Shown here piece after piece: positions 5,422 through 62,607 of a DNA stretch of 64,000 nt (positions are counted from its first letter, which is position 1; every line of letters begins with the position of its first letter). This DNA is from an uncultured virus (IMG/VR IMGVR_UViG_3300030095_002703). Its lineage: Duplodnaviria; Heunggongvirae; Uroviricota; Caudoviricetes. A program made the translations under genes and the position numbers. Under the pieces are notes generated by a model. The model had not been told where the DNA came from. It saw only the letters and a list, made by a program, of their open reading frames with translations, and did no database searches. Location: IMG/VR virus record IMGVR_UViG_3300030095_002703; one strand, given 5' to 3'.

Positions 5422-5495
5422 AAAAGAATGACCCCAGCCGGGGGCAACCGTACTGGGGTCGGGGTCAACTACGGAGAACATGATTACCATGTTCC
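5422..5495 (-). ncRNA. Putative trans-acting sRNA with two anti-RBS seeds
   Basis: Promoter TTGATT-N18-TATACT (5501-5530); 5' hairpin GAACAUG/CAUGUUC; seed CUCCGUAGUU; terminator GACCCCAG/CUGGGGUC with GGUUGCCCCCGG apex and U-tract. Confidence 0.7.
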
Positions 5496-5533
5496 AGCGT
5501 AGTATATACAGTTTGATATGGGATAATCAACAC

Positions 5534-5686
5534 TTAATCGCATATTTCACAAACATTTTCAGGGTATTCTCCACCGTCTAGCGGATCAATAATTGTAAGC
5601 TCACAGTTTTTACATTTACGAATAAGTTGATCTTCGGTCATCGCAATAAACGTTAGGGCTTGTTCACATTTAGGACACGTGTTATT
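5534..5686 (-). CDS. Small Zn-ribbon protein (start uncertain, 5686 or 5734)
   Basis: CPKC...CKNC...CEIC. Confidence 0.6.
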   Translation of the reverse strand, partial: NNTCPKCEQALTFIAMTEDQLIRKCKNCELTIIDPLDGGEYPENVCEICD

Positions 5687-5873
5687 CATTAGGTTTTTGT
5701 GAAAATGTCCCGGTTCCCCCCGGATTGGCTTCATTGTGTGCTGCCTCCATATACCATTCGAAGACTAGCCGAAGCTGCCCACCAATGGTTCTGCCTTCTT
5801 TTTTTGAAAGCTCCTTGATTTCTTCATACACTTCTCGTGGTACGAGAATGCTTTTCCAACGTGTTGTATCCAT
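5682..5873 (-). CDS. Ribbon-helix-helix DNA-binding regulator
   Basis: WKSILVPREVYEEIKELSKKEGRTIGGQLRLV fits the RHH beta-strand/helix/helix pattern; promoter TTGCGT-N17-TATTAT at 5910-5938. Confidence 0.7.
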   Translation of the reverse strand: MDTTRWKSILVPREVYEEIKELSKKEGRTIGGQLRLVFEWYMEAAHNEANPGGTGTFSQKPNE

Positions 5874-5965
5874 TTGTTCTGTCTCCGATGCCCCCGGAAT
5901 ATATCTACGATAATATACTAAGATATATAAGAACGCAAGAAATCACTTCGCCGAAGCGGGGTTGG

Positions 5966-6181
5966 TTAGTCGAGGTAAAAGCTAATACTGTCGCCTTCAC
6001 CAAAATGATGGAAATCTATCGTGGGAGTCCGCCCCGGCTCATCGTAATTATGTTTTACAATCTTCACTTCGGTGAACAAATCGCCGTCAAAATCCTCAAA
6101 ACTAAACTTTGCCTTACACTGTTTGTTAAGGTGCTTTTCCACAATATCCATCAGCTCGTGGTAAAAAATTTCTATTTTCAT
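5966..6181 (-). CDS. Hypothetical protein
   Basis: Start at MKIEIF behind GAGGA; TTGACA at 6232-6237 with two operator boxes. Confidence 0.65.
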   Translation of the reverse strand: MKIEIFYHELMDIVEKHLNKQCKAKFSFEDFDGDLFTEVKIVKHNYDEPGRTPTIDFHHFGEGDSISFYLD

Positions 6182-6238
6182 GTTGCCATCCTCTATAGTT
6201 GAAAGAACGTTATCGCATAATGTCGCATACATGTCAAC

Positions 6239-8134
6239 TTATTTTGCTTCGCCCCATGAAGGACCAATTTCCACGTCACACTTAGATGGGACTTCTAAAG
6301 GCACCGCTTGTTCCATGACTCTAGCGACCGTATTAGCTTCGTCAACATTCTTGACCGACATAGCAATTTCATCGTGTATCTGGAGCATGGGCAGTATTCC
6401 CTGCTTATACAGATCGACCATTGCTTTCTTAGTCATATCCGCAGCAGATGCTTGGATCAGCCTGTTTAAAGCTTTGTAGGTGTATGCACGTTTAAGACGG
6501 GTCGTAGGCCCATATTCGTCTACTGCTTCCCTGTACGGCAGCGCCTTGTTCATAGCAAACGTATCGGGCTCCCACAAATCAAATCGACATTTACGACCAA
6601 GCAGTGAGTGCAGTGATCCGCCAGAGGATTTTTCGTTCAGTCGGTTCATAACGCCAGTCATAAGACCTTTAACAAACGGAACGCGGTCATGGTATTGTTT
6701 GGTCAGACCTTTTGCTTCTTCAACCGATACATCAAGTTGTTCGGATAACTTGTTGACTCCCATGCCATACATCATCCCAAGATTTATTGTCTTGGCCTGT
6801 TTCCGCGGTATGTTAGCCATCTCCGCCACCATTGTATGGAAGTCCGTGTCCGGGTTTTCGTTGTAGGCGCTAACAAAATCCTTGGCACCCTCCAATGCTA
6901 CTCCTCGCATTTTACCGTATACATGCGCATAATGTACCAAAATGCGCGGTTCTTGTTGACTGAAGTCAATGGCCGCCCAATGTTCGCCTTCTTCTGGTAA
7001 GAATAGCGAACGAATCATTGGACCCAGTTCAGGATCGCGGGCCGGGATTTGTTGAAGGTTAGGGTTGGACATTGATATACGTCCCGACACTGTGCCTCCA
7101 TCGTCAGAACGGATTTGATTTATATGGGAGTGTATTCGACCGTCAGCGTGGCAGTGTTTCATGATTGTATTGATGAAAGTGCCGGATGTCTTATTCAGAT
7201 TCCTAGCTTGAGTCACCAACTGCGCGAGTGGATGGTCATGCTCTTGGAGGAAGAGTTTTGTAAAACTAGGTGCGCCCTTTTCAGTACGTGGATAGTTGAC
7301 TCCGATTTTATCGAACGCTTTAGCGAGAGATTGCGCAGCCCATATTTCAACGTTAGCGCCGCTGATACGCTTGATCTCCTTCAGAACGTCCCGTTCTCTC
7401 TTGAGCAAACTATTCCTCGTTCTCTCGACCTTCTCCGTATCGACCCTAACGCCACGCATCGTCATATCAACAAGACATGGGAGGAGATCAAGTTCGAGAT
7501 TGGCGATAGGCCACAAGCCCTCTTTGCCAAGTTGAACGGAGAAATAGTTCCAGAGTTCGAGAGTCAGTTCAGCGTCTCCTTCAGCGTAAGGTCCGACATA
7601 CATCGCGGGCATCTTCCACATTTCAGCTTTAGGATCGACACCAAACTCCCTCGCGGCCTCCACTAAACCTTTCTCAGACTTAACTTTTCCCAAGTGGTCG
7701 TAGGCCAGTGCGTTTAAACTGTAACTAAACCGGTTCTCATCTAATAAAGACGCCACCACCATGGTATCTATGATCCGGCCGTTTACTTGAAAGCCCATGT
7801 GCTTTATCCAACCCAAATCATACTGTGCGTTGTGCATAATCTTATCAGCAGGGCATTCAAAGACTTTCTTCAGCCATTTGTTTACCTGCTTTTCATCAAG
7901 GTTGCCTCCGCCAAAGTGGCGGATAGGTATGTAGCCTGACCAATCATCAACAGCTACGGCATAACCAACTACCTCGCCATCACCTGTCGGCCAGCCGGGA
8001 CCGTTCTGTTTTAGGTTCGGGTCCCGTGTTTCAACATCTATTGCTATCTTTTTAGCTGACGTAATGTCAGGTAATTCCAGCGGGGGTATCCATTCACTTT
8101 TTGGGGCGAACATGCTCATTTGTAGTTTTGCCAT
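6239..8134 (-). CDS. polA: Family A DNA polymerase (3'-5' exonuclease + polymerase), Leu at the E. coli 762 position
   Basis: DVET ExoI, HNAQYD ExoII, YAEGD ExoIII, DFSQQEPR motif A, KTINLGMMYG motif B, QIHDE motif C. Confidence 0.95.
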   Translation of the reverse strand: MAKLQMSMFAPKSEWIPPLELPDITSAKKIAIDVETRDPNLKQNGPGWPTGDGEVVGYAVAVDDWSGYIPIRHFGGGNLDEKQVNKWLKKVFECPADKIMHNAQYDLGWIKHMGFQVNGRIIDTMVVASLLDENRFSYSLNALAYDHLGKVKSEKGLVEAAREFGVDPKAEMWKMPAMYVGPYAEGDAELTLELWNYFSVQLGKEGLWPIANLELDLLPCLVDMTMRGVRVDTEKVERTRNSLLKRERDVLKEIKRISGANVEIWAAQSLAKAFDKIGVNYPRTEKGAPSFTKLFLQEHDHPLAQLVTQARNLNKTSGTFINTIMKHCHADGRIHSHINQIRSDDGGTVSGRISMSNPNLQQIPARDPELGPMIRSLFLPEEGEHWAAIDFSQQEPRILVHYAHVYGKMRGVALEGAKDFVSAYNENPDTDFHTMVAEMANIPRKQAKTINLGMMYGMGVNKLSEQLDVSVEEAKGLTKQYHDRVPFVKGLMTGVMNRLNEKSSGGSLHSLLGRKCRFDLWEPDTFAMNKALPYREAVDEYGPTTRLKRAYTYKALNRLIQASAADMTKKAMVDLYKQGILPMLQIHDEIAMSVKNVDEANTVARVMEQAVPLEVPSKCDVEIGPSWGEAK

Positions 8135-8387
8135 TACCTTCTCCACCTAACGCCGCGTACCCGCAAATATCTAACCAAGAATCTGCGTGGTCGGGTGTTA
8201 CGTTTAGTCGGGCAAGTTTAACAGCAATCATGCACTGATAAACTTGCGCTACGGTTACATCTTTACTAAGAATTACAGACCATAACTTTGCTATGCGCTC
8301 ATGGTTTTCGTAAGCATCGCCATACTCCTTTGCTCGTTTACCATTAAGTATCTTCTCTGCATTTTGCAGTATCTGTTCTCGTTTCAT
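8094..8387 (-). CDS. DUF6378-like protein
   Basis: R..EYGD...NH.RIA.LWS...KLAR...H.DS..D..GYAALG pattern. Confidence 0.75.
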   Translation of the reverse strand: MKREQILQNAEKILNGKRAKEYGDAYENHERIAKLWSVILSKDVTVAQVYQCMIAVKLARLNVTPDHADSWLDICGYAALGGEGNGKTTNEHVRPKK

Positions 8388-8418
8388 TAAATGTACCGCT
8401 CAGTTCTAGTTAGTTTTT

Positions 8419-10066: not shown

Positions 10067-10071
10067 ACTAC

Positions 10072-30583: not shown

Positions 30584-30820
30584 TCATCCGTCTATTACTT
30601 GAGCTTCTTCAGTGTTTTCTTTCACAGCAAGTGAATCAGTTAACATCTTGAAAAAAGCTTCACGACCGACATTTAGTTGATCTAAATTAAATCGTAAGCT
30701 TCCCATTTTCTTGTCCAAGTCAGATATGTGGTTAACCATAGCTACTTGTTGTTCTGTTAAATCATCAATGTTGTGTTCTACTTCATTGACAGTAATGGTT
30801 TTCTTTTCATTTTTCGCCAT
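30584..30820 (-). CDS. Small coiled-coil protein downstream of tail fibre
   Basis: 78 aa; AAGGAG RBS. Confidence 0.75.
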   Translation of the reverse strand: MAKNEKKTITVNEVEHNIDDLTEQQVAMVNHISDLDKKMGSLRFNLDQLNVGREAFFKMLTDSLAVKENTEEAQVIDG

Positions 30821-30843
30821 TATAAGTCTCCTTTAGTTTAAAA

Positions 30844-31152
30844 TTAAAACGGTTTGCCCCATGCTGTTGAGGGGGTTTTTGCTTCGTTAAGTTTTGCTGT
30901 TGCTTGTGCTTCAACTTCTGATACTCCATCAGAACCCAAAGTTGTTTTCACCCATCCAGTAATTGTAGACTCATCAAGTGAATCCCAAGCCACATAACCG
31001 CTATCGCTAGGATCAGGTGTATAGGACTCCATGCCAGATACTGTACCTGAGTAATCACCATCGGTATCTGTTGCAGACCATGCGGCATGAACCACACCTT
31101 TGTCTGAGTCGTTTGTGTATTCACAATTTGTAATGCTCCACACTACTGCCAT
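30844..31152 (-). CDS. Putative tail-fibre assembly protein, paralog of 31178-31525
   Basis: W.I...D.GV....W......Y..L.E.....WV.......G.P[FW] shared with neighbour. Confidence 0.6.
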   Translation of the reverse strand: MAVVWSITNCEYTNDSDKGVVHAAWSATDTDGDYSGTVSGMESYTPDPSDSGYVAWDSLDESTITGWVKTTLGSDGVSEVEAQATAKLNEAKTPSTAWGKPF

Positions 31153-31177
31153 GATATTTCTCCTTTATTAATAAATA

Positions 31178-31525
31178 TTATTCCCAAGGCAATCCTGTTG
31201 CTTGGCTTGCCGCCCTATCTATTTGACCTTGAACTTTTGCGGTTCGGTCATCTTCGATTCGTTTTTTTGCTTCATCAGCAGTTTCTTCGCCTTCAATCAA
31301 GCTATTGTACACCCATCCCAATACATCGCTTTCTTTTAAATCATCATAACTAATAAATGATGATGAGGAAGCATCATAAGTAAGCTTTAATTTACCGCCC
31401 TCTTGAGCAGTGTACGAGGGAGTGCCATCACTATTCGCAGTCAATGACCAATAGACAAGGATTACTCCTCCGTCTGAGTCCATATGCGTCATGTCGTTGA
31501 CGCTCCAAGTTGTTGTTATTGCCAT
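31178..31525 (-). CDS. Putative tail-fibre assembly protein
   Basis: Same pattern as 30844-31152; directly downstream of fibre. Confidence 0.6.
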   Translation of the reverse strand: MAITTTWSVNDMTHMDSDGGVILVYWSLTANSDGTPSYTAQEGGKLKLTYDASSSSFISYDDLKESDVLGWVYNSLIEGEETADEAKKRIEDDRTAKVQGQIDRAASQATGLPWE

Positions 31526-31538
31526 GTTTCTTTCTCCT

Positions 31539-34500
31539 TTAAGTTTTTTCGGGTTCTACAATTACTTTACCGTTGCTATCAGTCCAATCAGTATCCTTCA
31601 TGTGCTGATCATGACGCTCACCTACCACCATCCATGAGATTGTGTCGGTGCAAGAGTTGTCCTGTGCTGTAATTGTTAAAGTGTTACCAGACACAGAACC
31701 TTTAATTGCAGTCCACCCTGATTCATTTGATGTAAAGCATTGTACATTCGTATTCAACAGAACAAAGGTTCCGTCCGTCATACCTGCCGCTGTATCAATG
31801 TTTACAGTCGCAACGCCATCCACCAGATCAACGCTGCCACGATAAATATTGTCGGCCTGTGGTGCTTCCACAAACGAGTGAACAAGGTGATGGGTATCTG
31901 TTTTGGCGGGTAGAGGATGGTCAATCTTAAATGATCCAGAACCTTTAGAAATAGAACCTGAAAAGGTCACGCCACTAGCTGTTACATGAACATAAGCCGT
32001 GCCTCCTCCCGCAGGGCCAATTGCTAATTCTTGGGCAGTTCCACCATTTTGAGGAAGAATTTCCAAAGCACCAGAACCCACGCCACTCAATGTAGATGTA
32101 TTTCCAATAGAAAAATCCCACTCAGAAACACCGGCTCTGTTTAATCTTAGTTTAGTTCCATCTGCTGATTCTCCTATCGTGAACAATTTTCCGGGGCTAC
32201 TCGTCCCGATACCGACTCGGTCATTACCCGCATCAACAAACAGCATATTAGCGTTGCCGCTAGACTCAACGCGGAAGTCACGGTCTATACCTGCATTATT
32301 AATAACTAACTCAGCAGGAATAATGTCTAAGGCGTTGACGGCATTCCCCGCAGTCATTATTTGAATGTCCATTTTAAAATCTTCAGTGCCGTCAGTAACA
32401 TCAGCTATATGAGTACGAACTTTCATATAATCTTTTGTTGAACCTGCACTATTTTTACCTTGATAAAAAATAGTTGATAAAGCGTCATCATCAGCAGGAC
32501 TTGTCGAATCTCTGAAAAGAATTATGTCTGGCCCAGAAGCATTATTTGCCTGTGTGCTATGTAAAGTTAGGTATGTTCCGTCAACAGTATTTTTTATTAT
32601 TGCATCACCAAGAACGGACAATGTTTTAGTTGGTGTTGACTCGCCTATACCGACTCTATCATTGCCACCATCAACCCTTATCATATTAGCATTGCCATTA
32701 GACTCAACGCGGAAGTCAACGTCAGCAGAATCTTCGTTAAAAACTGCTCCGCTATGAAAATGAGAAAACCCAGCAACCTCAAAGGTTTGACTTGTGGGTA
32801 CTCTGCCAATTCCAACGCGGTCATTACCCGCATCCACAAACAACATATTAGCGTTGCCGTTAGACTCAACGCGGAAGTCTAAATCTGCTGAGTCTTCATT
32901 GATTACTGTTTCAGTAGCACCCATAAGAATACGAGACACGTTTTCTGTGGTAGCGACACTCGTAGCAAACTCAAGAGTTCCATCTTCTGTGGCGTTGCTT
33001 GCATCTGTAATTGTGGCGGATATTCTCGCGAAGCTGTGTTCTTCTGCGGCATCGTTATTAGCAACAAAACTTATTCTACCTAGATTATCGCCATCAGCAG
33101 GACTGCTTGAGTTTCTAAAAAATTTAACATTAGGTCCAGAGTTTGCATCTGCGTCTGTACATATAAGTGTAAGGACGTTTGAGTTATCGGCTGTGGTAAA
33201 TGTTGTTGCACCTGCCGCTATTGTAGAATTAAACGTAGCCGCACCTGCATCTGACATATCAAGGGTAAGGGCTGTTATGGTAGAGCCGCCATCGTTGCCT
33301 TTGAATATTATATCTTGGTCGCTAACAGCCGCTTGTATTATGTTTTCACTGCTTGAATGAACAATAACAAAATCGTTTGAATTACCTAGACGTATATATT
33401 TATCATCACCCATCGTTAGGTTATTTGCTGTTACAGTTCCGTTGACATTGATGCCATCATTAAAAGTAGCGTACCCTGCGGCACTCATGTCTATAGTAAG
33501 GGCTGTAATAATACTTCCACCATCGTTGCCTCTAAAAACAATGTCTCCATCCTGTATGCCTTGATTTATTCGCATATCATTACTGGACTTTGCTATATTT
33601 CCGAAAGTTGTTCCACCGTCTTTAAATTCTATTTCGCCTCCATCAGCATCAAGAATAATGTTACCTGCACCATCTACTGTTAGGTCACCAATAGGAGATT
33701 CAAGTGTTGCGGTATTTGCTCCGTTGTCGTATAAAAGATTGATACCTGTATTACCGCTTTCATCCTGAACCTTATAACCTGCTATTCTGTTATTAGTAGT
33801 ATTTTGCACAACTACATGAACGTCAGAACCACTATTATCTTTGTTTTTAACATGAAGACTTCCTGTTCCGTCACTACCGCCTATTGTAATTCTGTCATTA
33901 CCACCATCCACAAACAACATATGAGTGTTGTTGTTAGACTCAACACGGAAGTCTACATCTGCGCTACCCTCGTTTATCACCACGCTTCCAGAGGCTAAAT
34001 CAAGCGTTTGCGTACCACCTGCAAAAAATGTTTGTGTATCAGTTCCAAAATCTAAAGACGTATTGGAATCGCCTTGATGAACAATAGACGTTCCAACATA
34101 AGCGATTGTTGGGATAGTCACAGAATCGTTAAACGTAGCGGCTCCTGCTTCAGACATATCAAAAGTACAAGCAGTAATAGCAGAACCACCATCGTTACCT
34201 CTTATAAGTACATCTTTATCTTGAACTATAGACCTAAATACAAAATCGCTACTATTATTAATAATACTACCAATATGTGTTCCACCATCTTTAAATGCTA
34301 CTTCTGCTCCATCTGCATCAAGATTTATAACACCTGCCACATCTAATGTTAAATCACCAGAAGATAAATCTATTTCAGTGCCATCTATTGTAATGTTGTC
34401 TACTACTACACCTGCGTTGGCTGTGAGGACTCCAGAAACTCCTAACGTGCTAGATATGTCTGCCTTACCATTTACATCTAACGCTAATCCTGTACCTGCG

Positions 34501-36608
34501 TGGTCTATTTGAAGTCCCGTAAAAGGACAGTTACTGTCAGTTATGTTAATTCTGGCTAAACCATTTGTAATCGCATCATTACGAGGGGTTGTTATCAATA
34601 ATGCTTGGTCTCCTGCGGCTAACCCAGATATGTCTATTGCCGCGGCAGGACTTGCGGTTCCTATCGCTAAATGGCTTGATGCTCCTAATTTTACATCAGA
34701 ATTAAACGTAGCGGCTCCTGCGGCACTCATATCAAGGGTGAGGGCTGTAATTTCTGAACCGCCATCATTGCCCCTAAATAACATATCTTTATCAGAGACT
34801 GCTGACTTAATTACTAAATCTGTAGAAGAGTTTAATATTCTTCCAAATTCAGTGCCTCCATCTTTAAATTGGAATCCTCCACTATCAGAATCAAATATTA
34901 TGTCTGACGCTACGTCAAAAGTTAAAGTCCCAGAACTTACATCTATCTCATTACCATCTATAGTAATGTTATCAGCCACTACACCTGCGTTGGCTGTGAG
35001 GACTCCAGTGGCAGATAAAGCACCCACTACCTGAAGGCCGCCACTGTTAAAAGCACCTCTAGTCGTTCCACCCGCAGTAAATGCAACGCTATCTGCTCCA
35101 TCAAAATACATACCTGTATTAGTATCACCTGCATTTGTAATAGAAGGTGCGGAGGTTGAACCGTCACTTACTGTTACCACGCCACCAACCGCTAGAGTGC
35201 TTGCCATATCCACAGCACCATCAATGTCTACAACATCAAGATTAGTCGTGCCGTCTACGTCTATATCACCACTAATATCTAGGGAAGCCGCAATAATCTC
35301 ACCGCTTGCGTTGATCGCACCATTAATATCAATCGTTGTCGCTGCTATTTGAATTTCAGTGTCTGCAACAATGTCTAGCTGTCCATCAGTACTTGAGTTT
35401 ATGTAAATAGCTGAATCACGAAACTGGACTTTCTGTGCGGAAGTTACTTCTATATCAGTTGATCCGGTGGTATTACCATTAGCCAAAACCTCAGCTAGGG
35501 TATCAACCGTTCCAACCTGTGAATCTACATAAGCCTTAATAGACTGTTGAGTAGCAAGTTTAGTTGCGCTGTTAGAAGACATGTTATCTTCATCAGCAAT
35601 ATCTGTAACCGCAACAGATCCTGTACCAGATAGAGCATCAAACTCTATTGTTCCGTCTACATCTAAATCACCATTAAAGTCTGCATTGCCCGCTAAAGTT
35701 AACGTAGAAGCCATATCCACAGCGCCATCTATATCTACAACATCAAGATTTGTAGTGCCGTCAACATCTATATCCCCACTAATATCTAAACTAGCTGCAA
35801 TAATTTCACCACTAGCGTTAATTGCGCCATTAATATCAATGGTTGTAGCGGCTATTTGAATTTCTGTATCTGCAACAATATCTAGTTGTCCATCAGTGCT
35901 AGAGTTTATATAGATAGCTGAGTCACGAAACTGTACTTTGTCATCTGTAGAAACCGCTACATCTGTCCCACCAGTAGTATTACCATTAGCAAGGACTTCA
36001 GGTAAAGTATCTGAAGTAGCAACCTGTGAGTCTACATAAGCCTTAATTGATTGTTGAGTAGCAAGTTTAACATTACTGTTGCTTGCCATATTATCTTCGT
36101 CGAGTATACCTGTTACTGTAGTCGAATCGGCTCCTTTTAAAGAAGCAAATGTAGTAAGTCCAGTTATGGTAAGAGTACCCGCAGACATAGTAACTACATG
36201 ATCTACAGCCTCAACTACGTTAGTTCCATCACAAAATAACAACATAGTTTTACCGTTAGGTACGGCGATACCAGTTCCACTTGCTGTTTTTAACGTTGCT
36301 GCTTGACCACAAGAATTTTTTACAATGTAAGTTTTAGTAGCTGCGGGGCATACTACAGAAGCTGCTCCGCTTAATGAGCTTCCTGTGTCAGTTAAAGACA
36401 GCATTGCGCAACGCGATTCAGAAGTAGTGCCGTTAGCGGTAGTTAATGTGTGAGCGTTAGTTGACCAACTATTAATAGTAGCTAGGCCAGCGATAGACTC
36501 TTCAACCATCTGAGTAATGTTGTCGTTTACTACTGTGCCCCATGTTCCGCTAAGTTCGCCCTGTACAGGTAAGGCTAGTTTTAATATTGTAGTGAATCCA
36601 GTTGCCAT
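31539..36608 (-). CDS. Long modular tail fibre with C-terminal intramolecular-chaperone-like domain
   Basis: 1689 aa; GELSGTWG N-terminal anchor; three repeat families; C-terminal GSFKIDHP..HSFVE.P..YRG..GERHD. Confidence 0.85.
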   Translation of the reverse strand: MATGFTTILKLALPVQGELSGTWGTVVNDNITQMVEESIAGLATINSWSTNAHTLTTANGTTSESRCAMLSLTDTGSSLSGAASVVCPAATKTYIVKNSCGQAATLKTASGTGIAVPNGKTMLLFCDGTNVVEAVDHVVTMSAGTLTITGLTTFASLKGADSTTVTGILDEDNMASNSNVKLATQQSIKAYVDSQVATSDTLPEVLANGNTTGGTDVAVSTDDKVQFRDSAIYINSSTDGQLDIVADTEIQIAATTIDINGAINASGEIIAASLDISGDIDVDGTTNLDVVDIDGAVDMASTLTLAGNADFNGDLDVDGTIEFDALSGTGSVAVTDIADEDNMSSNSATKLATQQSIKAYVDSQVGTVDTLAEVLANGNTTGSTDIEVTSAQKVQFRDSAIYINSSTDGQLDIVADTEIQIAATTIDINGAINASGEIIAASLDISGDIDVDGTTNLDVVDIDGAVDMASTLAVGGVVTVSDGSTSAPSITNAGDTNTGMYFDGADSVAFTAGGTTRGAFNSGGLQVVGALSATGVLTANAGVVADNITIDGNEIDVSSGTLTFDVASDIIFDSDSGGFQFKDGGTEFGRILNSSTDLVIKSAVSDKDMLFRGNDGGSEITALTLDMSAAGAATFNSDVKLGASSHLAIGTASPAAAIDISGLAAGDQALLITTPRNDAITNGLARINITDSNCPFTGLQIDHAGTGLALDVNGKADISSTLGVSGVLTANAGVVVDNITIDGTEIDLSSGDLTLDVAGVINLDADGAEVAFKDGGTHIGSIINNSSDFVFRSIVQDKDVLIRGNDGGSAITACTFDMSEAGAATFNDSVTIPTIAYVGTSIVHQGDSNTSLDFGTDTQTFFAGGTQTLDLASGSVVINEGSADVDFRVESNNNTHMLFVDGGNDRITIGGSDGTGSLHVKNKDNSGSDVHVVVQNTTNNRIAGYKVQDESGNTGINLLYDNGANTATLESPIGDLTVDGAGNIILDADGGEIEFKDGGTTFGNIAKSSNDMRINQGIQDGDIVFRGNDGGSIITALTIDMSAAGYATFNDGINVNGTVTANNLTMGDDKYIRLGNSNDFVIVHSSSENIIQAAVSDQDIIFKGNDGGSTITALTLDMSDAGAATFNSTIAAGATTFTTADNSNVLTLICTDADANSGPNVKFFRNSSSPADGDNLGRISFVANNDAAEEHSFARISATITDASNATEDGTLEFATSVATTENVSRILMGATETVINEDSADLDFRVESNGNANMLFVDAGNDRVGIGRVPTSQTFEVAGFSHFHSGAVFNEDSADVDFRVESNGNANMIRVDGGNDRVGIGESTPTKTLSVLGDAIIKNTVDGTYLTLHSTQANNASGPDIILFRDSTSPADDDALSTIFYQGKNSAGSTKDYMKVRTHIADVTDGTEDFKMDIQIMTAGNAVNALDIIPAELVINNAGIDRDFRVESSGNANMLFVDAGNDRVGIGTSSPGKLFTIGESADGTKLRLNRAGVSEWDFSIGNTSTLSGVGSGALEILPQNGGTAQELAIGPAGGGTAYVHVTASGVTFSGSISKGSGSFKIDHPLPAKTDTHHLVHSFVEAPQADNIYRGSVDLVDGVATVNIDTAAGMTDGTFVLLNTNVQCFTSNESGWTAIKGSVSGNTLTITAQDNSCTDTISWMVVGERHDQHMKDTDWTDSNGKVIVEPEKT

Positions 36609-50508: not shown

Positions 50509-50527
50509 GTTATAACAATGTTATAAC
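50509..50527. promoter_or_regulatory. Tandem palindromic GTTATAAC operator-like site (also 51316-51333, 51884-51901, 53825-53842)
   Basis: GTTATAAC-N2/3-GTTATAAC read at four positions, at or near gene boundaries. Confidence 0.7.
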
Positions 50528-50625
50528 TTTTGTAAGCTATCTATTGTATTTATGTGTAAACTTGTTATTATGTGACCATCTTCAGCAATAACGTTGAAGT
50601 GTAAATAACTAAAGAGTATATAAAC

Positions 50626-51228
50626 ATGAGTACATATATAAATGAAGTAAGAGCAGTACCTACGCGCCTGACTAACAAAGGCAAGGAATCAATAAGTAAC
50701 GCAGTTAAATTAGCTATCAAGTCTGAAGGTATACAGACCAAGGCAGTTGATCAGTTGATTGCTGATGGTATGTTTTGGACAGACTTTATCAGTCCCAATG
50801 GTAAATCTGGCGAATCTACAGCTACCACCGAACTGTATGACGCATTGAAAGATGCCGTGGTGTCAGGGTTTAGTGCTACTAAACGCAATCTATTGGGCGC
50901 ATCTACTAAGGCGCTAAGTGATCAAGGTAAGATAGACAAACGCGAGGTTCAACAATCCATCGGTGCTTATATGTCAGCGTTTAAACGCGATCTAAAGAAT
51001 AGGCAGATCCCAAAGCCCAAAACAGAGAGAGCACCACAGCAACCATCTATGCCAAAGACTGGCGATAAGGTAGTTGATGAGGCGAATGCACTAGCGATGA
51101 AGGCAATCAAGAAAGAGACCGACCTCCAGAATTGGTGTCTTAACAATCTGCCAGAAGATACCGCTCTGGAGATTAGCAAGTTAAGAGCTAAGATTGTCGC
51201 ACTACTTCAACCAGATCCAATTCACTAA
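50626..51228 (+). CDS. First early gene of right-hand module, hypothetical
   Basis: 200 aa, followed by strong terminator. Confidence 0.8.
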   Translation: MSTYINEVRAVPTRLTNKGKESISNAVKLAIKSEGIQTKAVDQLIADGMFWTDFISPNGKSGESTATTELYDALKDAVVSGFSATKRNLLGASTKALSDQGKIDKREVQQSIGAYMSAFKRDLKNRQIPKPKTERAPQQPSMPKTGDKVVDEANALAMKAIKKETDLQNWCLNNLPEDTALEISKLRAKIVALLQPDPIH

Positions 51229-51236
51229 CCAAATAT

Positions 51237-51262
51237 GCCCCACTTCGGTGGGGCTTTTTTTT
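51237..51262 (+). terminator. Rho-independent terminator
   Basis: GCCCCAC-ttcg-GTGGGGC followed by T8. Confidence 0.92.
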
Positions 51263-51283
51263 CGCCCATCAAAAAGTACCTAC

Positions 51284-51378
51284 GATACCAGTTCCTAGTC
51301 CGCGTTGAGCCTTTTGTTATAACACGTTATAACATTGTGATACCAGTTCCAGCTTCGCGTTGAGCCTTTTGTTACAAC
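51284..51378. repeat. Two ~40-bp direct repeats, 55-bp period
   Basis: GATACCAGTTCC-N5-CGCGTTGAGCCTTTTGTTAYAAC at 51284 and 51339. Confidence 0.85.
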
Positions 51379-51755
51379 GTAAGTCGTTGATAAATATACA
51401 ATGTTACAAAATACCCCCCCTAATGTTACATAATGTTACAAAATTTAAGGGCAAAATGTAACATTATATTTTAGTGCGTTATCGTATCAGATAATGTGCA
51501 GGTTTGTGCAGGTTTGCCATAGTCAAAGTATCAGATCTTATCTATTTATATGTTTTTATTAATACATACTTATAATGTTACATTTTCAAAATAGTATTTA
51601 ACTCTCATAGAATTTTCTACATTGTTACAAATTTATTTGGGGGTGATCGAGCGACCTATTTTCCCCTGTAAAATGTAACTTTGTAACATTGTAGATATAT
51701 CAATGACTTACCGACCACAACTATGTAACATTACATTACAATACATTACAATACA
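51370..51755. repeat. TGTTACA/TGTAACA iteron array with two inverted IHF-consensus sites (origin or packaging-site candidate)
   Basis: About ten heptamer copies in AT-rich DNA; WATCAANNNNTTR at 51380-51392 (minus) and 51698-51710 (plus). Confidence 0.7.
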
Positions 51756-51789
51756 CTTCTCCCCACTTCCTGACACGTATACCCATAAC

Positions 51790-51817
51790 TTGACATAAGC
51801 TGTCACTCCTGTATAAT
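51790..51817 (+). promoter_or_regulatory. sigma70 promoter TTGACA-N16-TATAAT
   Basis: Consensus hexamers upstream of early operon. Confidence 0.8.
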
Positions 51818-51922
51818 GGTAATGTGGCTGAGAGATTTATCCTGTCCACTTTTACACGGTAACTTGTTACCACAACTCAAAATGTTATAACGTGTTATAA
51901 CAAAACGACAAGGAATATAGAC

Positions 51923-52087
51923 ATGAGCAATGAATGGCAAACCTTTGTAGAAGAACGAGCGCGAGAACTCGCTATGGAAAAAGAAGAAGTCCCATATGGA
52001 TATCACAACTTGAGAGAGATCGCCACCTCAGAGCTAGACGCTCAACTCAAACACTACTGGAGACAAACGCAAGGAGGAGAGAAGTGA
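51923..52087 (+). CDS. 54-aa hypothetical protein
   Basis: MSNEWQTFVEERARELAMEKEEVPYGYHNLREIATSELDAQLKHYWRQTQGGEK; AAGGA RBS. Confidence 0.7.
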   Translation: MSNEWQTFVEERARELAMEKEEVPYGYHNLREIATSELDAQLKHYWRQTQGGEK

Positions 52088-52251
52088 GAGACATCAGACT
52101 GTGGGACAGACAAGCCAAGATAGTAACCAAGCGCGAGATGCGTAAGGCAGAGTTTTGGCGAGCCTTTAAACAAGTGGGCACTGAGTTGATTGTAATACTA
52201 GGTTGCGTTACTAGCCTATGGGCAATCATATACCTTTTACTAACACGATAA
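52084..52251 (+). CDS. 55-aa membrane protein
   Basis: GTG start behind AGGAGGAG with GTGA coupling; C-terminal hydrophobic helix. Confidence 0.65.
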   Translation: MRDIRLWDRQAKIVTKREMRKAEFWRAFKQVGTELIVILGCVTSLWAIIYLLLTR

Positions 52252-52261
52252 GGAGAAGAAG

Positions 52262-53158
52262 ATGAACGATACAACTGCAACACCTAAAGTCGAAGCACCA
52301 TCTATCGGGTCTAGCGCCATGCTAGTAGAGTTACAGGTTAGCCAATGGACAGGTCGCAAGAAGGACAAGACAGCATCAGTCGAAGTGACTGATCAAAACT
52401 GGGCAGAGAAAGGTACGGCATCAGTCAATAAGAAGTTACTAGGTAACTGTGACGAGCTGACTGCCATACACAAATTCACCGCCAACTCACGCAACATACA
52501 CTACAAATCCACAATGCCGTGGAGCGATACAGGTATGCGGTTACTACCGACAGAGTCATATTTCAAATATCACCAACAGATGACTGAGCTACAAAACGAG
52601 TTCGAGCGTATGGCACAGTCATTTATCAGCAACTATGATTGGGAGATCAGCAGGGCGCAAGCACGGCTAGGTAATCTGTTTGTACGTGATGATTACCCGA
52701 CCACAGAATCTATCTCTCGCAAGTTCGCGTTCAACATATCTTACATACCATTGCCAGATGCGGGTGACTTTCGTGTGGATGTAGGCAACGACCAGAAGCA
52801 AGTACTCGAAGATCATTACAATGAGTACTACAACAGGCAACTGCACTCTGCTATGAATGACGTATGGCAACGCACTTACAAAGTGCTGAGTAATATGTCT
52901 GAGCGTTTAGACTACGCCAAGGGTGATACTAAGAAGATCTTTCGTGATACTTTGGTTGACAACGTGACCGACATAGTAGAACTACTTAACGTGTGTAATG
53001 TTACAAATGACGGGCAGATGACCGCGATGGCTATGAAGCTAGAGGATACGCTACGTGGAATAACGCCTGACGCATTGCGTGAAGATGCGTTTCTCCGTGC
53101 CGAAACCAAACGTGCGGTGGACAAAGTTATCGCAACACTACCATCATTGGAGATGTAA
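52262..53158 (+). CDS. Conserved early protein, DUF3150-like
   Basis: SSAMLVEL..SQWTGRKKD, T.PW.D.G.RLLP, DYP, FRDTLV, LN.CNVT.D. Confidence 0.55.
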   Translation: MNDTTATPKVEAPSIGSSAMLVELQVSQWTGRKKDKTASVEVTDQNWAEKGTASVNKKLLGNCDELTAIHKFTANSRNIHYKSTMPWSDTGMRLLPTESYFKYHQQMTELQNEFERMAQSFISNYDWEISRAQARLGNLFVRDDYPTTESISRKFAFNISYIPLPDAGDFRVDVGNDQKQVLEDHYNEYYNRQLHSAMNDVWQRTYKVLSNMSERLDYAKGDTKKIFRDTLVDNVTDIVELLNVCNVTNDGQMTAMAMKLEDTLRGITPDALREDAFLRAETKRAVDKVIATLPSLEM

Positions 53159-53160
53159 TC

Positions 53161-53475
53161 ATGGACATTGAAGAAGTACTCTTAGAATGCAACGTTATGC
53201 GTGAAAACGAAGAAGGTATCGGGCTATCTGACGCATTACTTAAGATAGTTGAGTTTGCTTACTATAAAGGATACGCCCAAAACAAAGATGAAGTAATAAG
53301 TATATGTTCGATGGCTATTTCTGATCAAGTTAAAATAATAGACGATGTCATAACAAGAGAGGTTGAGTTTGCAGATGAGCCAACAGATGATATCCAAAAT
53401 GCGTGGATGGATATAAAAATGTTTATTATTGTTCAAGAAGCTCTCAGAAAATATGAGGAGATTAATCATGGCTAA
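53161..53475 (+). CDS. Hypothetical protein
   Basis: 104 aa in operon order. Confidence 0.7.
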   Translation: MDIEEVLLECNVMRENEEGIGLSDALLKIVEFAYYKGYAQNKDEVISICSMAISDQVKIIDDVITREVEFADEPTDDIQNAWMDIKMFIIVQEALRKYEEINHG

Positions 53476-53671
53476 GATAATGTACGCGAGAGTAAAGCTG
53501 ACTGTAAAAGATAATGCCGATACAGAGTGCATAGTGGGTGAGGCTGTCTATGATTTCGACCACCCAGATATTATGGATACAGAGTGGGTGGAGTGTGAAG
53601 AAGAAACGCCACTAACTGAACAGTGTACTTTTGACTGGACACGTAAGGGATGTGTCGATTGTCAAGACTAA
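53468..53671 (+). CDS. Small acidic Cys-containing protein
   Basis: Start at MAKIM behind GAGGAG. Confidence 0.65.
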   Translation: MAKIMYARVKLTVKDNADTECIVGEAVYDFDHPDIMDTEWVECEEETPLTEQCTFDWTRKGCVDCQD

Positions 53672-53682
53672 GGAGAGAGTCG

Positions 53683-53841
53683 GTGAATAGTTACGGTCAA
53701 GCGGTGTTACGTGTGCGCAACTACAAACGCACCAAACACTACAAAGAAATGCGGATACCGAAGGGTCGAACCCCTCGCGTAGCGTATTACCAAGTCGTGA
53801 CTCGCAAGGGTCGCATATTAGAAAGTTATAACATGTTATAA
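53683..53841 (+). CDS. 52-aa basic protein
   Basis: GTG start behind AAGGAGAG. Confidence 0.55.
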   Translation: MNSYGQAVLRVRNYKRTKHYKEMRIPKGRTPRVAYYQVVTRKGRILESYNML

Positions 53842-53859
53842 CAAAACGATAAGGAGTAA

Positions 53860-58551: not shown

Positions 58552-58564
58552 GAGAGGGTTAATT

Positions 58565-58741
58565 ATGTTAGAGGAAATAATAAATATAATATTTAGCATA
58601 GTATTTTTAGGTTTTTTGGGTTTTATCTGTCATGGCGTTGTGCTCGTAATAAATGACAAGCAAAAAATTTGGGAACAAAAACAAAGAGGTAACTATTATG
58701 GCAATGACTCCCGAAGCGAAAGTAAAGAGCAAAGTAGTTAA
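58565..58741 (+). CDS. 58-aa membrane protein (below ORF-track cutoff)
   Basis: MLEEIINIIFSIVFLGFLGFICHGVVLVIND...; GAGG RBS. Confidence 0.55.
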   Translation: MLEEIINIIFSIVFLGFLGFICHGVVLVINDKQKIWEQKQRGNYYGNDSRSESKEQSS

Positions 58742-59048: not shown

Positions 59049-59353
59049 GCATAGATGAAGCAAACTCTGATAACTTGGATAAAGACTATATGAGAATGTC
59101 TAAAGATATAAAGACTACAATTATAGATCAAAGTCCTAAGGATATGGTAAACAGTCCTAGCCACTATACGGCAGGGAGTATTGAGTGTATTGACGCTATA
59201 GAAGCATCAATGACACCCGAAGCGTTTAAAGGGTATTGCAAAGGGGCATGTATGAAATACTTGTGGAGGTATGAGCACAAGGGTAAGTCGTTAGAAGATT
59301 TGAAAAAGGCTAGGTGGTACTTAAATAAGCTGATGACTAAAGTGGAGGGTTGA
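59045..59353 (+). CDS. DUF3310 (SaV-like) protein
   Basis: DMVNSPSHY..IECIDAI..KY.WR..K..EDL.KA.WY. Confidence 0.85.
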   Translation: MSIDEANSDNLDKDYMRMSKDIKTTIIDQSPKDMVNSPSHYTAGSIECIDAIEASMTPEAFKGYCKGACMKYLWRYEHKGKSLEDLKKARWYLNKLMTKVEG

Positions 59354-61194
59354 TGGACCTAATAACAGTAGATTTTGAAACTTATTATGATAAAGAATAC
59401 TCATTACGAAAAATGACAACAGAATCCTACGTACGCGACCCTAGATTTGAGGTGGTGGGTGTAGGAGTAAAAGTAAACAACGGAAATACGGAGTGGGCCA
59501 GTGGATCACATGAAGAACTTAAGCGGTACTTACACACTTTTAATTGGGCGGATAGTGTCTTACTCGCTCACAACACTATGTTTGATGGTGCCATTCTTAA
59601 TTGGCGTTTCGATGTTCATCCTCGCCGCTATACCGATACTCTTTGCATTGCCCGTGCTTTACATGGGGTCGAAGTTGGGGGCAGTCTCCATGCGTTATCT
59701 CAAAGGTATGACATTGGACTTAAGGGAACAGAGGTACTCGACGCTATCGGAAAAAGACGTGACTCCTTTTCAGAAGAAGCCTTAGACAAGTACGGCGATT
59801 ATTGCGTTAATGATGTAGAGCTGACCTACAAACTGTTTAAGATCATGGGTAAGAACTTCCCTAGACAAGAACTTAGAGTTATTGATACTACGTTGCGTAT
59901 GTTTATTGAACCTATGCTAGACCTAGACTTAGGGTTGTTAGAACAACATCTTGAAAGTATTAAGGCAGTTAAGGATGACCTGATAACTTCTTGTGGTGCA
60001 GATAAGTCAGAACTGATGAGCAATCCTAAGTTTGCTGAGTTGCTAGAAGGCTTGGATGTAGCACCTCCTATGAAGATAAGCCCTACTACAGGTAAGAGTA
60101 CATTCGCCTTTGCTAAGTCAGATGATGGATTCAAACAGTTACTTGATCATCCTAATTATAAGGTTCAAGCGTTAGCAAATGCACGGTTAGGTAATAAAAG
60201 TACGTTGGAAGAAACTCGTACACAAAGGTTTATAGATATATGTAAGCGAGGACTACTACCTGTACCTGTAAGGTATTACGCCGCTCACACTGGTAGGTGG
60301 GGTGGGGATGATAAGATTAATTTACAGAACTTACCTAGTAGAGGGCCACATGGTAAGAAGTTAAAGAGAAGTATAATTGCTCCAGAAGGTTATACAATAA
60401 TAGATTGCGATTCATCTCAGATCGAGGCTCGTGTGCTTGCATGGTTAGCAGGGCAAGACGATTTAGTAGCGGCGTTTGCAAACAAAGAAGATGTATATAT
60501 AAAAATGGCATCTATTATCTATGGCGTACCTGAGGACGAGGTAACAAAAGAACAAAGATTTGTTGGTAAGACCACCATACTTGGCGCAGGATATGGTATG
60601 GGCGCAGTGAGATTTACTGAGCAGTTAAAAGGTATGGGAGTTCACATGGACATTGCCGAGGCTCGTAGGGTAATAAAAATATACCGCGAGACTAATTGGA
60701 AGATAAACGTGTTATGGCGTAACTGTCAGAACATGCTACTGGAGTTGGTTCGTGCTCGGACACAGAATTTTGGAACTAATGATATAATAAAGCCTGTTGT
60801 CACGAATCAGTATGGTGGGATAAGATTACCCTCTGGACTCATTATGAAGTATGGTGACTTACGGTGGCAACAAAATGAAAAGGGCGTAGAGTTTACTTAT
60901 AAAACAAGACGAGGCCGAACTAGGATATACGGTGGCAAGGTAGTAGAGAATGTATGTCAAGCCATAGCCCGATGTGTGATTGCTGAACAGATGTTAGCTA
61001 TTGCTAAGAAATACCGTCCTGTCTTAACAGTACACGATTCGATAGCGTGTTGTGTGCCAATAGAAGAAGCAAAGGAAGCGCAAATATATATTGAAGCGTG
61101 TATGCGAAAAACCCCTACTTGGGCAGAAGGGCTACCTTTAGATTGCGAGTCTGGTGTAGCTAAAGCCTACGGAGATTGTGAACCTGATGGGTAA
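59350..61194 (+). CDS. polA: Second family A DNA polymerase, Leu at the 762 position
   Basis: DFET, HNTMFD, YCVND, HTGRWGG, DSSQIEAR, KTTILGAGYG, TVHDS. Confidence 0.95.
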   Translation: MMDLITVDFETYYDKEYSLRKMTTESYVRDPRFEVVGVGVKVNNGNTEWASGSHEELKRYLHTFNWADSVLLAHNTMFDGAILNWRFDVHPRRYTDTLCIARALHGVEVGGSLHALSQRYDIGLKGTEVLDAIGKRRDSFSEEALDKYGDYCVNDVELTYKLFKIMGKNFPRQELRVIDTTLRMFIEPMLDLDLGLLEQHLESIKAVKDDLITSCGADKSELMSNPKFAELLEGLDVAPPMKISPTTGKSTFAFAKSDDGFKQLLDHPNYKVQALANARLGNKSTLEETRTQRFIDICKRGLLPVPVRYYAAHTGRWGGDDKINLQNLPSRGPHGKKLKRSIIAPEGYTIIDCDSSQIEARVLAWLAGQDDLVAAFANKEDVYIKMASIIYGVPEDEVTKEQRFVGKTTILGAGYGMGAVRFTEQLKGMGVHMDIAEARRVIKIYRETNWKINVLWRNCQNMLLELVRARTQNFGTNDIIKPVVTNQYGGIRLPSGLIMKYGDLRWQQNEKGVEFTYKTRRGRTRIYGGKVVENVCQAIARCVIAEQMLAIAKKYRPVLTVHDSIACCVPIEEAKEAQIYIEACMRKTPTWAEGLPLDCESGVAKAYGDCEPDG

Positions 61195-61456
61195 AGTTAT
61201 TAACATAGATAGAACTCCTTATATACAAGATGATATTGATGATTTTGATAAAGATGGTGTGTCTACTAAAATATTTATAGCTCAAAGTAGCGATTGTGAT
61301 TATGCTTTAGTCTTTGAACAGTCTAGATTTTTAGATGGCAAAGAGATTGATACACAAGAAATTGTAATACCTTATGAGAATTTGAGGCAAGTATTACCCA
61401 ACATACTTAGCGCCACTAAAGAAGTATTAAGGCTTACGGAGGAGAGTAAGGAGTGA
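61187..61456 (+). CDS. Hypothetical protein
   Basis: Acidic, about 89 aa, coupled to neighbours. Confidence 0.65.
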   Translation: MGKVINIDRTPYIQDDIDDFDKDGVSTKIFIAQSSDCDYALVFEQSRFLDGKEIDTQEIVIPYENLRQVLPNILSATKEVLRLTEESKE

Positions 61457-62124
61457 GTATAAAACCTTGGTCATTCTCTAAAATAAAATCTTTTGAGCAA
61501 TGCCCTAAAAAGTTTTATCACCTTAAAATATTAAAAGATTACAAGGAGCCTGAGACTGAGGCTATGTATTACGGCACAGCTTTTCATTTAGCCGCCGAAG
61601 AATATATACGTGATGGTACACCACTCCCTGAGAAGTTTATGTATGGTAAGGCAGTACTTGATTCTCTTGCCGCCAAAAAAGGTGATAAGCTATGTGAGTT
61701 AAAGATGGGGCTTACAGAAAATTTAGAACCATGCGGATTCTTTGATGATAATGTATGGTGGAGAGGCATAGCAGATTTAGTTATATTAAACGAAGAAGAT
61801 AAGGTAGCATGGGCTATAGATTATAAAACAAGTAAGAGCACTAGGTATGCAGATAAAGGTCAGTTAGAATTAATGGCTATGGCATTGTTTAAACATTTTC
61901 CTAATATAGAGACAGTGCGTGGTGGCTTAGTATTTGTAGTGTGTGATGAGTTAGTTAAAGAAGAGTATGAACATACAGTTGCATCGAGCCTGTGGACTAA
62001 GTGGCTAACCGATTATAGTCGTATGGAGAAAGCGCAAGAAAAGAATGTATGGAATGCAAACCAAAGTGGCCTGTGTAAACGTCACTGTGTGGTGACTGAG
62101 TGTGTATATAACGGGAGGAACTAA
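61453..62124 (+). CDS. Cas4/RecB-like PD-(D/E)XK exonuclease with 4-Cys cluster
   Basis: WSFS..QCP, GTAFH, GIAD, IDYKT, QL..MA, LC..C....C. Confidence 0.85.
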   Translation: MSIKPWSFSKIKSFEQCPKKFYHLKILKDYKEPETEAMYYGTAFHLAAEEYIRDGTPLPEKFMYGKAVLDSLAAKKGDKLCELKMGLTENLEPCGFFDDNVWWRGIADLVILNEEDKVAWAIDYKTSKSTRYADKGQLELMAMALFKHFPNIETVRGGLVFVVCDELVKEEYEHTVASSLWTKWLTDYSRMEKAQEKNVWNANQSGLCKRHCVVTECVYNGRN

Positions 62125-62393
62125 TGCCGTACAAAAATAAAGCAGATCGCAAGAAACAAACCAATGCTCCTAAGGGTACTAAAGAGCATAAGGCTCGTAT
62201 GGAAAGACAACGAGCTAGACGTAAGATGGATAAGAAAGGTAAAGATGTTAACAAGAACGGTAAGGCTGATAAGCGTGAAGGTAAAGATGTAAGCCATAAT
62301 AAAGCTTTGAGTCGTGGGGGTAGTAATAAAGATGGTGTTAGAGTAGAAAGTAGATCAGCTAATCGAAGTCGTAATTACAAAAAGAAAAAATAA
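62124..62393 (+). CDS. Small HNH-like endonuclease
   Basis: GKDVSH..ALSRGGSN......S.NRSRN. Confidence 0.7.
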   Translation: MPYKNKADRKKQTNAPKGTKEHKARMERQRARRKMDKKGKDVNKNGKADKREGKDVSHNKALSRGGSNKDGVRVESRSANRSRNYKKKK

Positions 62394-62404
62394 TTTTTTG
62401 TGTG

Positions 62405-62607
62405 GACGCTTACCTAGATGCGTCAATAAATAGTTTGGGACGATCTCTACCCCTAGATTGTTTTGGAGTTTATATATTCTCTCCTTTAACCCAACAAAAT
62501 CAGGTAGCTTGAGGTGCTTATCCTATCATCCCGACCTAGCCCTATCGGGAAGCGAAGCAGGGCTATTAACTTTTCGTGTGACGTGGACACCCATTTCACA
62601 CTTTTTT
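62405..62607 (+). ncRNA. Putative structured RNA with anti-RBS loop, pseudoknot and terminator
   Basis: Hairpins 62405-62424 and 62447-62507 (apex GUUUAUAUAUUCUCUCCUUU), H-type pseudoknot 62529-62565, hairpin plus U6 at 62576-62607. Confidence 0.6.

Follow-up and report, generated by a model that had tools for sequence, protein, structure and literature searches.

A predicted small RNA appears to co-evolve with the early-gene leader tags of a marine phage clade

Do two replication modules that stand on one viral contig control their early genes by the same RNA-based switch, and is such a switch common in related aquatic phages? The question is raised by a stretch of 64,000 nucleotides from an uncultured member of the Caudoviricetes (IMG/VR record IMGVR_UViG_3300030095_002703), the whole of which was analysed and is hereafter called the window. 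A first-pass annotation had proposed that each of its two modules carries its own operator array, its own leader style and its own intergenic RNA directed against the ribosome-binding sites (RBS) of its own genes. In the phages related to the left module (phage A and its clade), one small RNA (sRNA), here termed RNA-A, probably switches the tagged early genes off together. The RNA of the right module (phage B), RNA-B, seems to be a separate structured RNA, and the two modules were most likely brought together by a chimeric join. A probability of roughly 0.68 is given to this explanation as a whole.

RNA-A is predicted to be a short transcript with a 5' hairpin, an exposed seed and an intrinsic terminator (Table 1), and its start near 5495 was placed from the position of the promoter. 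With this start, the predicted fold has a z-score of -3.58 and the seed is unpaired. Iterated nhmmer searches detected the unit in 77 of 150 loci related by their family-A DNA polymerase (PolA), a count that includes one weak off-site match and many near-duplicates, while many of the misses end less than 1 kb from PolA; true matches lie 0.24-2.2 kb downstream of PolA. In 40 curated units, a sigma70-like promoter was found before 38 (compared with 9.7 of 40 random windows), and a terminator of -10 kcal/mol or lower in all 40, which had been chosen as terminator-linked. Six of the 11 terminator pairs have changed on both sides in an alignment of 24 sequences, with 94.8% of cells paired, and the first hairpin varies freely, leaving the seed as the conserved unpaired part. 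Antisense open reading frames (ORFs) of at least 30 amino acids are absent from 35 units; as the remaining five hold ORFs of only 30-41 amino acids, the idea that the seed is the RBS of an antisense gene was rejected. No Rfam family matched RNA-A in the window or in five relatives at the gathering score, and none that appeared related was found at E<=10. As far as sequence comparison can tell, RNA-A has the features of a trans-encoded sRNA, namely its own promoter and terminator, a length of 50-150 nt, no conserved ORF, and a conserved seed that is complementary to, and covaries with, the initiation regions of its putative targets.

Within the window, the motif ACTACGGAG occurs four times on the left (three leaders and the complement in RNA-A), compared with 0.03 expected, and nowhere else. 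Perfect matches of at least 9 nt to RNA-A are present in four of 13 early-gene leaders of phage A (one of them spurious, through the terminator stem), but in none of 53 other leaders (6 of A-replication genes, 29 of structural genes and 18 of phage B). The leader tag may therefore be read as an address label that is absent from replication and structural genes. The part of the tag that lies 5' of GGAG has no complementarity to the tail of 16S rRNA, and host ribosomes therefore do not explain it.

A comparison of cognate with non-cognate start regions, which the first-pass annotation had named as the check, was performed across clade A. Of 286 loci, 137 extended 3 kb or more past PolA, and 71 representatives were left once PolA identity was capped below 93%. 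The test used the 43 of these that had a terminator unit outside coding sequence, 6 or more leaders and an identity of 56% or higher; the units were chosen blind to seeds. The 28 representatives left out had no terminator unit, too few leaders or low identity, and are mostly pelagiphage-like with 49-54% PolA identity. After double centring, the cognate score was -1.85 kcal/mol (permutation standard deviation 0.24; 0 of 100,000 permutations). The own genome ranked first for 8 of the 43, among the top three for 15 and among the top five for 21. Neither control was significant, with values of -0.33 (p=0.086) for decoy Shine-Dalgarno (SD) sites and -0.12 (p=0.28) for leaders with shuffled flanks.

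Because this permutation ignores relatedness, 40 seeds were curated. They form 21 seed classes scattered on a PolA tree from a quick IQ-TREE run, on which close relatives often differ in class. The seeds match 25.7% of their own leaders and 29% of the leaders of same-class genomes, compared with 6.0% of the leaders of other classes. Among close relatives that differ in their seeds, 13 pairs were picked by hand without overlap, and all 13 favoured the cognate match. Examples include the pair CACCUCAUAAAAA/UUUUUAUGAGGUG in genome L068, a CUCCGUAAUAAA/UUUAUUACGGAG-type pair in L258 (=L057) and UCCCGUAG/CUACGGGA, which is present in nine genomes. The seeds follow tags as diverse as CUACGGAG, CUACGGGAG, UUAUUACGGAG, ACACGGAG, UUUGGAG, UUUUAUGAGG, CAAUGGAG, ACUUUGGGAG and AGGAGUC, and in L014/L219 the seed pairs via G-U and not as an exact copy. 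Under a strict rule, 132 of 506 leaders are targets, 70 of them in rare families. They include 7 of 11 DUF932-like genes and 4 of 10 AlpA-like genes, and 9 of 15, 7 of 10, 6 of 8 and 6 of 7 members of four families absent from the leader set of the window. Strict targets cluster in early cassettes and not in the terminase small subunit (1 of 21). The co-evolution of the clade-A seed with the tag of its own early-gene leaders is thus strongly supported by comparison of the genomes.

Several results weigh against this reading. The RNA-A of the window itself ranks only 10th of 43, its seed being common to many relatives. The 40 curated seeds were picked by eye after the leaders had been seen, and seven of these genomes have no leader that passes the strict target rule. 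Wobble pairs, examined as a possible sign of pairing at the RNA level, are unevenly distributed, with G.U in 37 of 217 cases but U.G in only 5 of 233, and A.C mismatches in 16 of 203. Fold prediction with a start at 5500 leaves the seed of the window partly occluded, and predicted accessibility is mixed among the curated RNAs, the distal part of the seed being open in 22 of 40.

The operator arrays add a possible link between RNA-A and its targets. The proposal that each module has its own repeated operator was borne out. TATRVGAY, counted on both strands, is found 17 times in 1-14576, compared with 4.3+/-2.1 in shuffles, and is at chance outside the left module (11 vs 12.4 in the middle and 5 vs 6.4 on the right). 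Twelve of the 17 sites lie outside coding-sequence calls, though these calls make up 90% of the region, and the left sites overlap sigma70-like promoters, that of RNA-A included. A half-site is present upstream of 25 of 40 related RNA-A units, compared with 3.2 at random. GTTATAAC is enriched on the right alone, with 8 copies in 50291-64000 against 0.4, arranged as four pairs with a spacing of 10-11 bp; such pairs also occur in the clade-B loci L493 and L139, and other lineages have other palindromes at that place. Both arrays are real, and both motifs are candidate repressor sites.

A mechanism may be proposed for clade A, in which a stand-alone RNA-A would be made from a promoter for host sigma70 that carries the same operator as the early promoters. 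Its single-stranded seed would pair across the SD sequence and the 5-7 preceding bases of the phage's own variable early genes. That RNA-A is transcribed and pairs with these leaders is what we infer. By analogy with known anti-RBS sRNAs, the pairing would block 30S loading, and the tagged genes would be shut off as a group once the RNA accumulates. Since RNA-A and its targets seem to be under the same operator, a short, self-limiting pulse of early proteins is likely.

The alternative that survives best, although we consider it unlikely, is that RNA-A mainly silences the early genes of superinfecting or co-infecting relatives, forming RNA-based immunity groups, and that the timing of its own genes is secondary. 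Because superinfection silencing would drive seed change, the fast turnover of the seeds (21 classes in 40 genomes, with frequent changes between close relatives) would find an explanation, and the c4-based heteroimmunity of P1 and P7 offers a parallel in the available part of its description (PMC12197685). On the other hand, no integrase was seen in PHROG scans of the window, and HTVC027P, a phage of related type, is lytic according to the accessible portion of its report (PMC12753301). The preferred reading, an early-gene switch, is compatible with the silencing of same-tag superinfecting phages as a second role of RNA-A.

It is improbable that the seed instead belongs to the 3' tail of the operon upstream (promoter near 6222, genes 6181-5534) and works in cis by pairing with the operon's own first leader, so that matches to further leaders would be a by-product of a common leader style. 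Pairing of 5' and 3' untranslated regions (UTRs) has a precedent in icaR, the leader CAACUAUAGAGG pairs with the seed at -16 to -19 kcal/mol, and a second anti-SD stretch follows closely on the PolA stop codon in many clade-A loci. However, the conserved promoter (38 of 40) and operator half-site (25 of 40) belong to the RNA-A unit itself, the gene family directly upstream is a strict target in 0 of 12 cases, and distant early cassettes hold the best matches.

A slightly smaller chance still is given to the tag being a protein site (for a CsrA-like or phage RNA-binding factor, or for a DNA-binding protein) or a repeat homogenised by recombination, with the inverted copy acting as a decoy, DNA site or by-product and not as a pairing strand. 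The CsrA motif ANGGA is compatible with the ACGGA of the tag, cassette shuffling is able to spread leader repeats in phages, and the wobble asymmetry described above leaves room for such a site. A decoy, however, would copy the tag and not its complement, whereas the copy is always antisense and lies between promoter and terminator. It also follows tags as unlike as UUUUUAUGAGG, ACUUUGGGAG and AGGAGUC, and the G-U pairing of L014/L219 is not what an exact copy would give. Finally, chance or composition, by which any CU-rich hairpin linker would pair with an SD sequence, suits the generic CUCCUUU of the RNA-B of the window but is very improbable overall and refuted for clade A, where the real test was significant and both controls were not.

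Additional elements were observed at the RNA-A loci. The terminator loop GGUUGCCCCC (5433-5452, minus strand) is conserved in one sub-clade beyond the needs of a terminator, and may possibly be a second pairing or protein site. The second anti-SD stretch (CUCCC/CUCCU) lies 40-130 nt past the PolA stop codon, before the terminator of the PolA operon, in many clade-A phages (L041, L046, L051, L057, L059, L068, L075, L174, L180 and L023) but not in the window, and is possibly a 3'-UTR regulator. In L180, two successive terminator-ended units (16830-16944) are each complementary, as judged by eye, to a different leader of that genome.

The premise that the two modules belong to one genome probably does not hold. 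PHROG scans of the window proteins place a left replication module at 1-14.6 kb (primase, helicase, PolA and SNF2), a single structural block at 14.6-50.3 kb and a right replication module at 50.6-64 kb (PolA, exonuclease and SNF2). Record G003 aligns at about 80% to 14000-31541, mainly the left part, whereas records G001 and G002 (57,950 bp, 93% complete) align to 35636-64000 at 99%, with little match left of about 30.8 kb. These records make a single genome with two replication modules unlikely. In the runs of three other studies, the right part is nearly unchanged, while the stretch 24-30.5 kb is either missing or divergent. In the best of these runs, the left is covered at a depth of about 14 and the right at 19-27, and none of the pieces listed crosses the join. 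The mean size of HTVC023P-type genomes is 58.8 kb in the available text of PMC9599517. The window is therefore very probably a fusion of phage A and phage B, both marine and of the Leu762-PolA/SNF2 type, with the join in the tail region, and the one-genome premise is probably an assembly artefact. On this reading, the two modules represent two phage lineages, and two RNA systems appear in one window. A true recombinant in place of an assembly chimera keeps a small share of the probability, the evidence for the chimera being contigs and the missing coverage being weak. At the left edge of the probable junction, tandem phrog_7802 paralogues are present (30844-31152 and 31178-31525), of which G003 appears to have one.

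The PolA of phage A is 57% identical to that of DSL-LC04 and 51% to that of the pelagiphage HTVC023P, which has a similar gene order and forms a long outgroup branch in the PolA tree. For the PolA of phage B, the best cultured match reaches only 36%. The host labels of metagenome-assembled genomes (MAGs) for A-like contigs contradict one another. GTTACA/TGTAAC repeats occur 49 times in the window, with one non-coding cluster per module (6 in 251 bp at 3700-3950 and 10 in 441 bp at 51340-51780); the clusters are probably replication-origin or packaging sites.

An intergenic RNA in each module, as the first-pass annotation claimed, does exist as a conserved structure, and that of the right module has an architecture of its own. 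In 39 sequences, 94.4% of cells are paired under the two-pseudoknot model of RNA-B, compared with 34-40% when the model is slid along the alignment, and both sides have changed in 13 of 26 pairs (6 of 9 in the loop helix of pseudoknot 1, and 3 of 5 and 4 of 7 in pseudoknot 2). An earlier model with a GUY/GAC helix was dropped, since the second pseudoknot covaries better (13 vs 10 pairs). Of the 153 loci with the full stretch from exonuclease to SNF2, 122 have a conserved RNA-B, which starts no more than 60 nt from the HNH-like ORF in 102 of the 122; no promoter of its own was found. Rfam gave no match and ARAGORN no tRNA-like domain, leaving a transfer-messenger RNA, signal recognition particle RNA or group I intron without support. 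The HDV-like, pistol, hammerhead and twister ribozymes were likewise rejected for want of an Rfam match; judged by eye against what we take to be the consensus, pseudoknot 2 is without an HDV-like P3/L3, and the CUGAUGA-like letters vary. The RNA-B model has 0 matches in 286 A loci and the RNA-A model 0 in 228 B loci. From this comparative evidence, we regard RNA-B as a real, new structured RNA family that is unrelated to RNA-A.

RNA-B would be an RNA apart from RNA-A, probably processed, whose ends may be protected by two nuclease-resistant pseudoknots as caps; its variable, often anti-SD loop may act in some lineages as a repressor of one early gene or a few. Such an anti-RBS role is conceivable, though on balance doubtful. 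A CU-rich 5-mer is present in P2 of 42 of 56 unique sequences and absent from 14. In the window, the loop is a generic anti-SD sequence. The leaders of the right module have only a generic (T)AAGGAG SD. RNA-B matches 2 of 18 B leaders and 4 of 29 structural leaders, and its longest match (10 nt, TTAAAGGAGA) is to the tail-gene leader at 31525 near the junction, so that the predicted preference of each RNA for its own leaders stood for RNA-A but not for RNA-B. The general cognate test in clade B (20 of 28 representatives) gave -0.47 with p=0.07, short of significance, the window ranking sixth. The match of the window's AAA gene, at 6 nt, is no better than non-cognate (6.3). When the AAA-ATPase leader alone, chosen post hoc, was considered in 16 genomes, p was 0.008 by length and 0.038 by energy; matches of 7-10 nt were found in six of them, and in L403/L489 loop and leader changed together. 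The same regulatory logic is therefore established on the left and only suggested on the right. A wide occurrence in Leu762-PolA/SNF2 phages was confirmed within clade A (PolA 63-100% identical to that of the window). No clear RNA-A-like unit was seen by eye in the intergenic regions of the cultured HTVC023P and HTVC027P, and RNA-B is missing from 31 of 153 B loci.

Some further features of clade B may be mentioned. The AAA ATPase, whose leader is the best candidate RNA-B target in some relatives, forms a pair with a DUF2201 metallopeptidase/VWA gene (53860-56174) directly behind the last GTTATAAC pair. Its leader has no clear SD in L415, L493 and L129, and the RNA-B of L415 also has no CU-rich loop. 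In phages without RNA-B (L464 11098-11280, L402, L410 and L462), a related compact pseudoknot with the loop GGUCGAA is present, three times in tandem in L464 and often with a CU-rich hairpin before it. Several lineages (L090, L091, L095, L096, L098, L105 and L123) have a further conserved, apparently structured element of about 150 nt between the HNH-like gene and RNA-B.

Table 1. Positions of the features discussed, in window coordinates
Feature	Position	Strand	Remarks
RNA-A, predicted sRNA of ~74 nt	5422..5495	-	5' hairpin 5495-5475, exposed seed, intrinsic terminator
RNA-A sigma70-like promoter	5501..5530	-	TTGATT-18-TATACT; promoter scan
RNA-A seed CUCCGUAGUUG	5466..5476	-	Complement of the ACUACGGAG leader tag
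RNA-A terminator stem and U tract	5422..5460	-	Stem 5460-5430
Target leader AACUACGGAG, gene starting at 316	325..334	-	Sequence; gene truncated by window edge
Target leader ACUACGGAG, DUF932-like gene (start 1643)	1652..1660	-	Leader match
Target leader AACUACGGAG, 45-aa ORF (start 2673)	2679..2688	-	Duplex -23.2 kcal/mol
Target leader CAACACGGAGAAC, AlpA-like helix-turn-helix (HTH) gene (start 5178; 4765-5178)	5182..5194	-	Duplex -21.7 kcal/mol
Weaker target leader CAACUAUAGAGG (start 6181)	6190..6201	-	First gene of operon upstream of RNA-A
TATRVGAY pair	362..379	.	Over promoter 397-368
Other promoter-linked TATRVGAY sites	1701, 2477/2487, 2699/2709, 5212, 6212/6222, 13080	.	Motif and promoter scan
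Inverted TATRVGAY half-site pair	5517..5544	.	On both sides of the RNA-A promoter -35 box
Four GTTATAAC palindrome pairs	50509/50520, 51316/51326, 51884/51894, 53825/53835 (50509..53842)	.	Two directly before an RBS
Phage A family-A DNA polymerase	6239..8146	-	Leu762 type, motif KTINL
Phage B family-A DNA polymerase	59353..61194	+	Leu762 type, motif KTTIL
Probable phage A/phage B junction	30800..35636	.	Tail-gene region; match limits of G003 vs G001/G002
Small basic HNH-like ORF	62124..62393	+	PHROG 4590, unknown function; no Pfam hit; HNH read by eye
RNA-B	62405-62565	+	Two covarying H-type pseudoknots
RNA-B pseudoknot 1	62405..62506	+	Stem 62405-62424, loop pairs with 62499-62506; encloses variable stem P2
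RNA-B CU-rich anti-SD stretch in P2	62475..62489	+	The anti-RBS of the first-pass annotation
RNA-B pseudoknot 2, compact H-type	62529..62565	+	Covariation
Hairpin and U-run before SNF2 start (62623)	62577..62607	+	Goes with the leader of the next gene, not with RNA-B

Among known systems, the bacterial anti-SD sRNAs (RNAIII, RsaE and the cuckoo RNAs) have a generic CUCC loop that is able to occlude the SD sequence. P2 of RNA-B resembles these C/U-rich loops, but RNA-B differs from them in its two H-type pseudoknots, its place in a phage replication operon and the lack of an Rfam family.

The leader tag of phage A has a close counterpart in the start-associated sequences (SAS/ESAS) of the cluster K mycobacteriophages. 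These are extended-SD tags that non-structural genes carry next to inverted repeats; a single reverse copy was noted in four genomes, and the function of the sequences was left open in the available text (PMC3203893). Both systems have a repeated extended-SD tag, adjoining operator-like repeats and one copy in the opposite orientation; sequence and host are unrelated, and the accessible part of that report proposes no RNA for the reverse copy (PMC3203893). In Anaya, the reverse SAS (59870; L533 29871) forms the loop of a conserved hairpin between genes, and 182 phage records match this region. This loop is kept in two, degenerate in two and absent from one of five further cluster K phages, and the reverse copy was not found in the examined parts of Pixie and TM4. 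The cluster K hairpin sits downstream of a promoter-like TTGACG...TAGACT (L533; L536-L540).

It is tempting, though at present rather speculative, to suggest that many phages use a private RNA address system, in which a fast-evolving early-gene tag is matched by a complementary small RNA. Such a system might have arisen on unrelated scaffolds (the clade-A unit, the clade-B double pseudoknot and the cluster K hairpin), and might time the early-to-late switch and define RNA-based exclusion groups among relatives. If so, it would explain the start-associated sequences, open since 2011, and RNA-A offers a testable hypothesis for them in a tractable laboratory system. If the clade-A mechanism is true, it would represent a regulon-level translational switch in abundant marine phages without need for a protein. 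For an RNA known from sequence, trans covariation over about 20 seed classes is unusually strong evidence, and the clade-A seeds and tags would supply sRNA-leader pairs that are naturally orthogonal.

The literature searched, in which subscription journals were mostly not covered, yielded no account of a phage sRNA that has several targets and follows their leaders. Three motifs were absent from 6 supplementary files of the Fremin 2023 catalogue (PMC10690425), the two largest files not being among these, and that catalogue may include the RNAs as candidates without annotation. The nearest relatives in function are two antisense RNAs of temperate phages. The sar RNA of P22, of about 68 nt, pairs with a phage mRNA and thereby keeps its translation from starting, as RNA-A would; as far as the available text describes it, sar has one target (ant) and no genome-wide leader tag (PMC12197685). 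The c4 RNA of P1/P7 (about 77 nt) acts in trans and makes P1 and P7 heteroimmune; as is proposed for RNA-A, it is encoded by the phage, its exposed segments pair around a phage RBS, and sequence changes give specificity, according to the same partial account (PMC12197685). In that account, c4 acts on one antirepressor transcript, whereas RNA-A would act on several unlinked early genes through a common tag, from its own promoter and terminator. RNA-A is not a member of the C4 family, as it has no Rfam match and its putative targets are DUF932-like, AlpA-like HTH and unknown early genes, not ant. Thus, while c4 and sar each control one gene in temperate phages, the tag with which RNA-A seems to co-evolve marks an entire class of genes, and RNA-A is best regarded as a new multi-target variant of the P1 c4-like anti-RBS RNAs.

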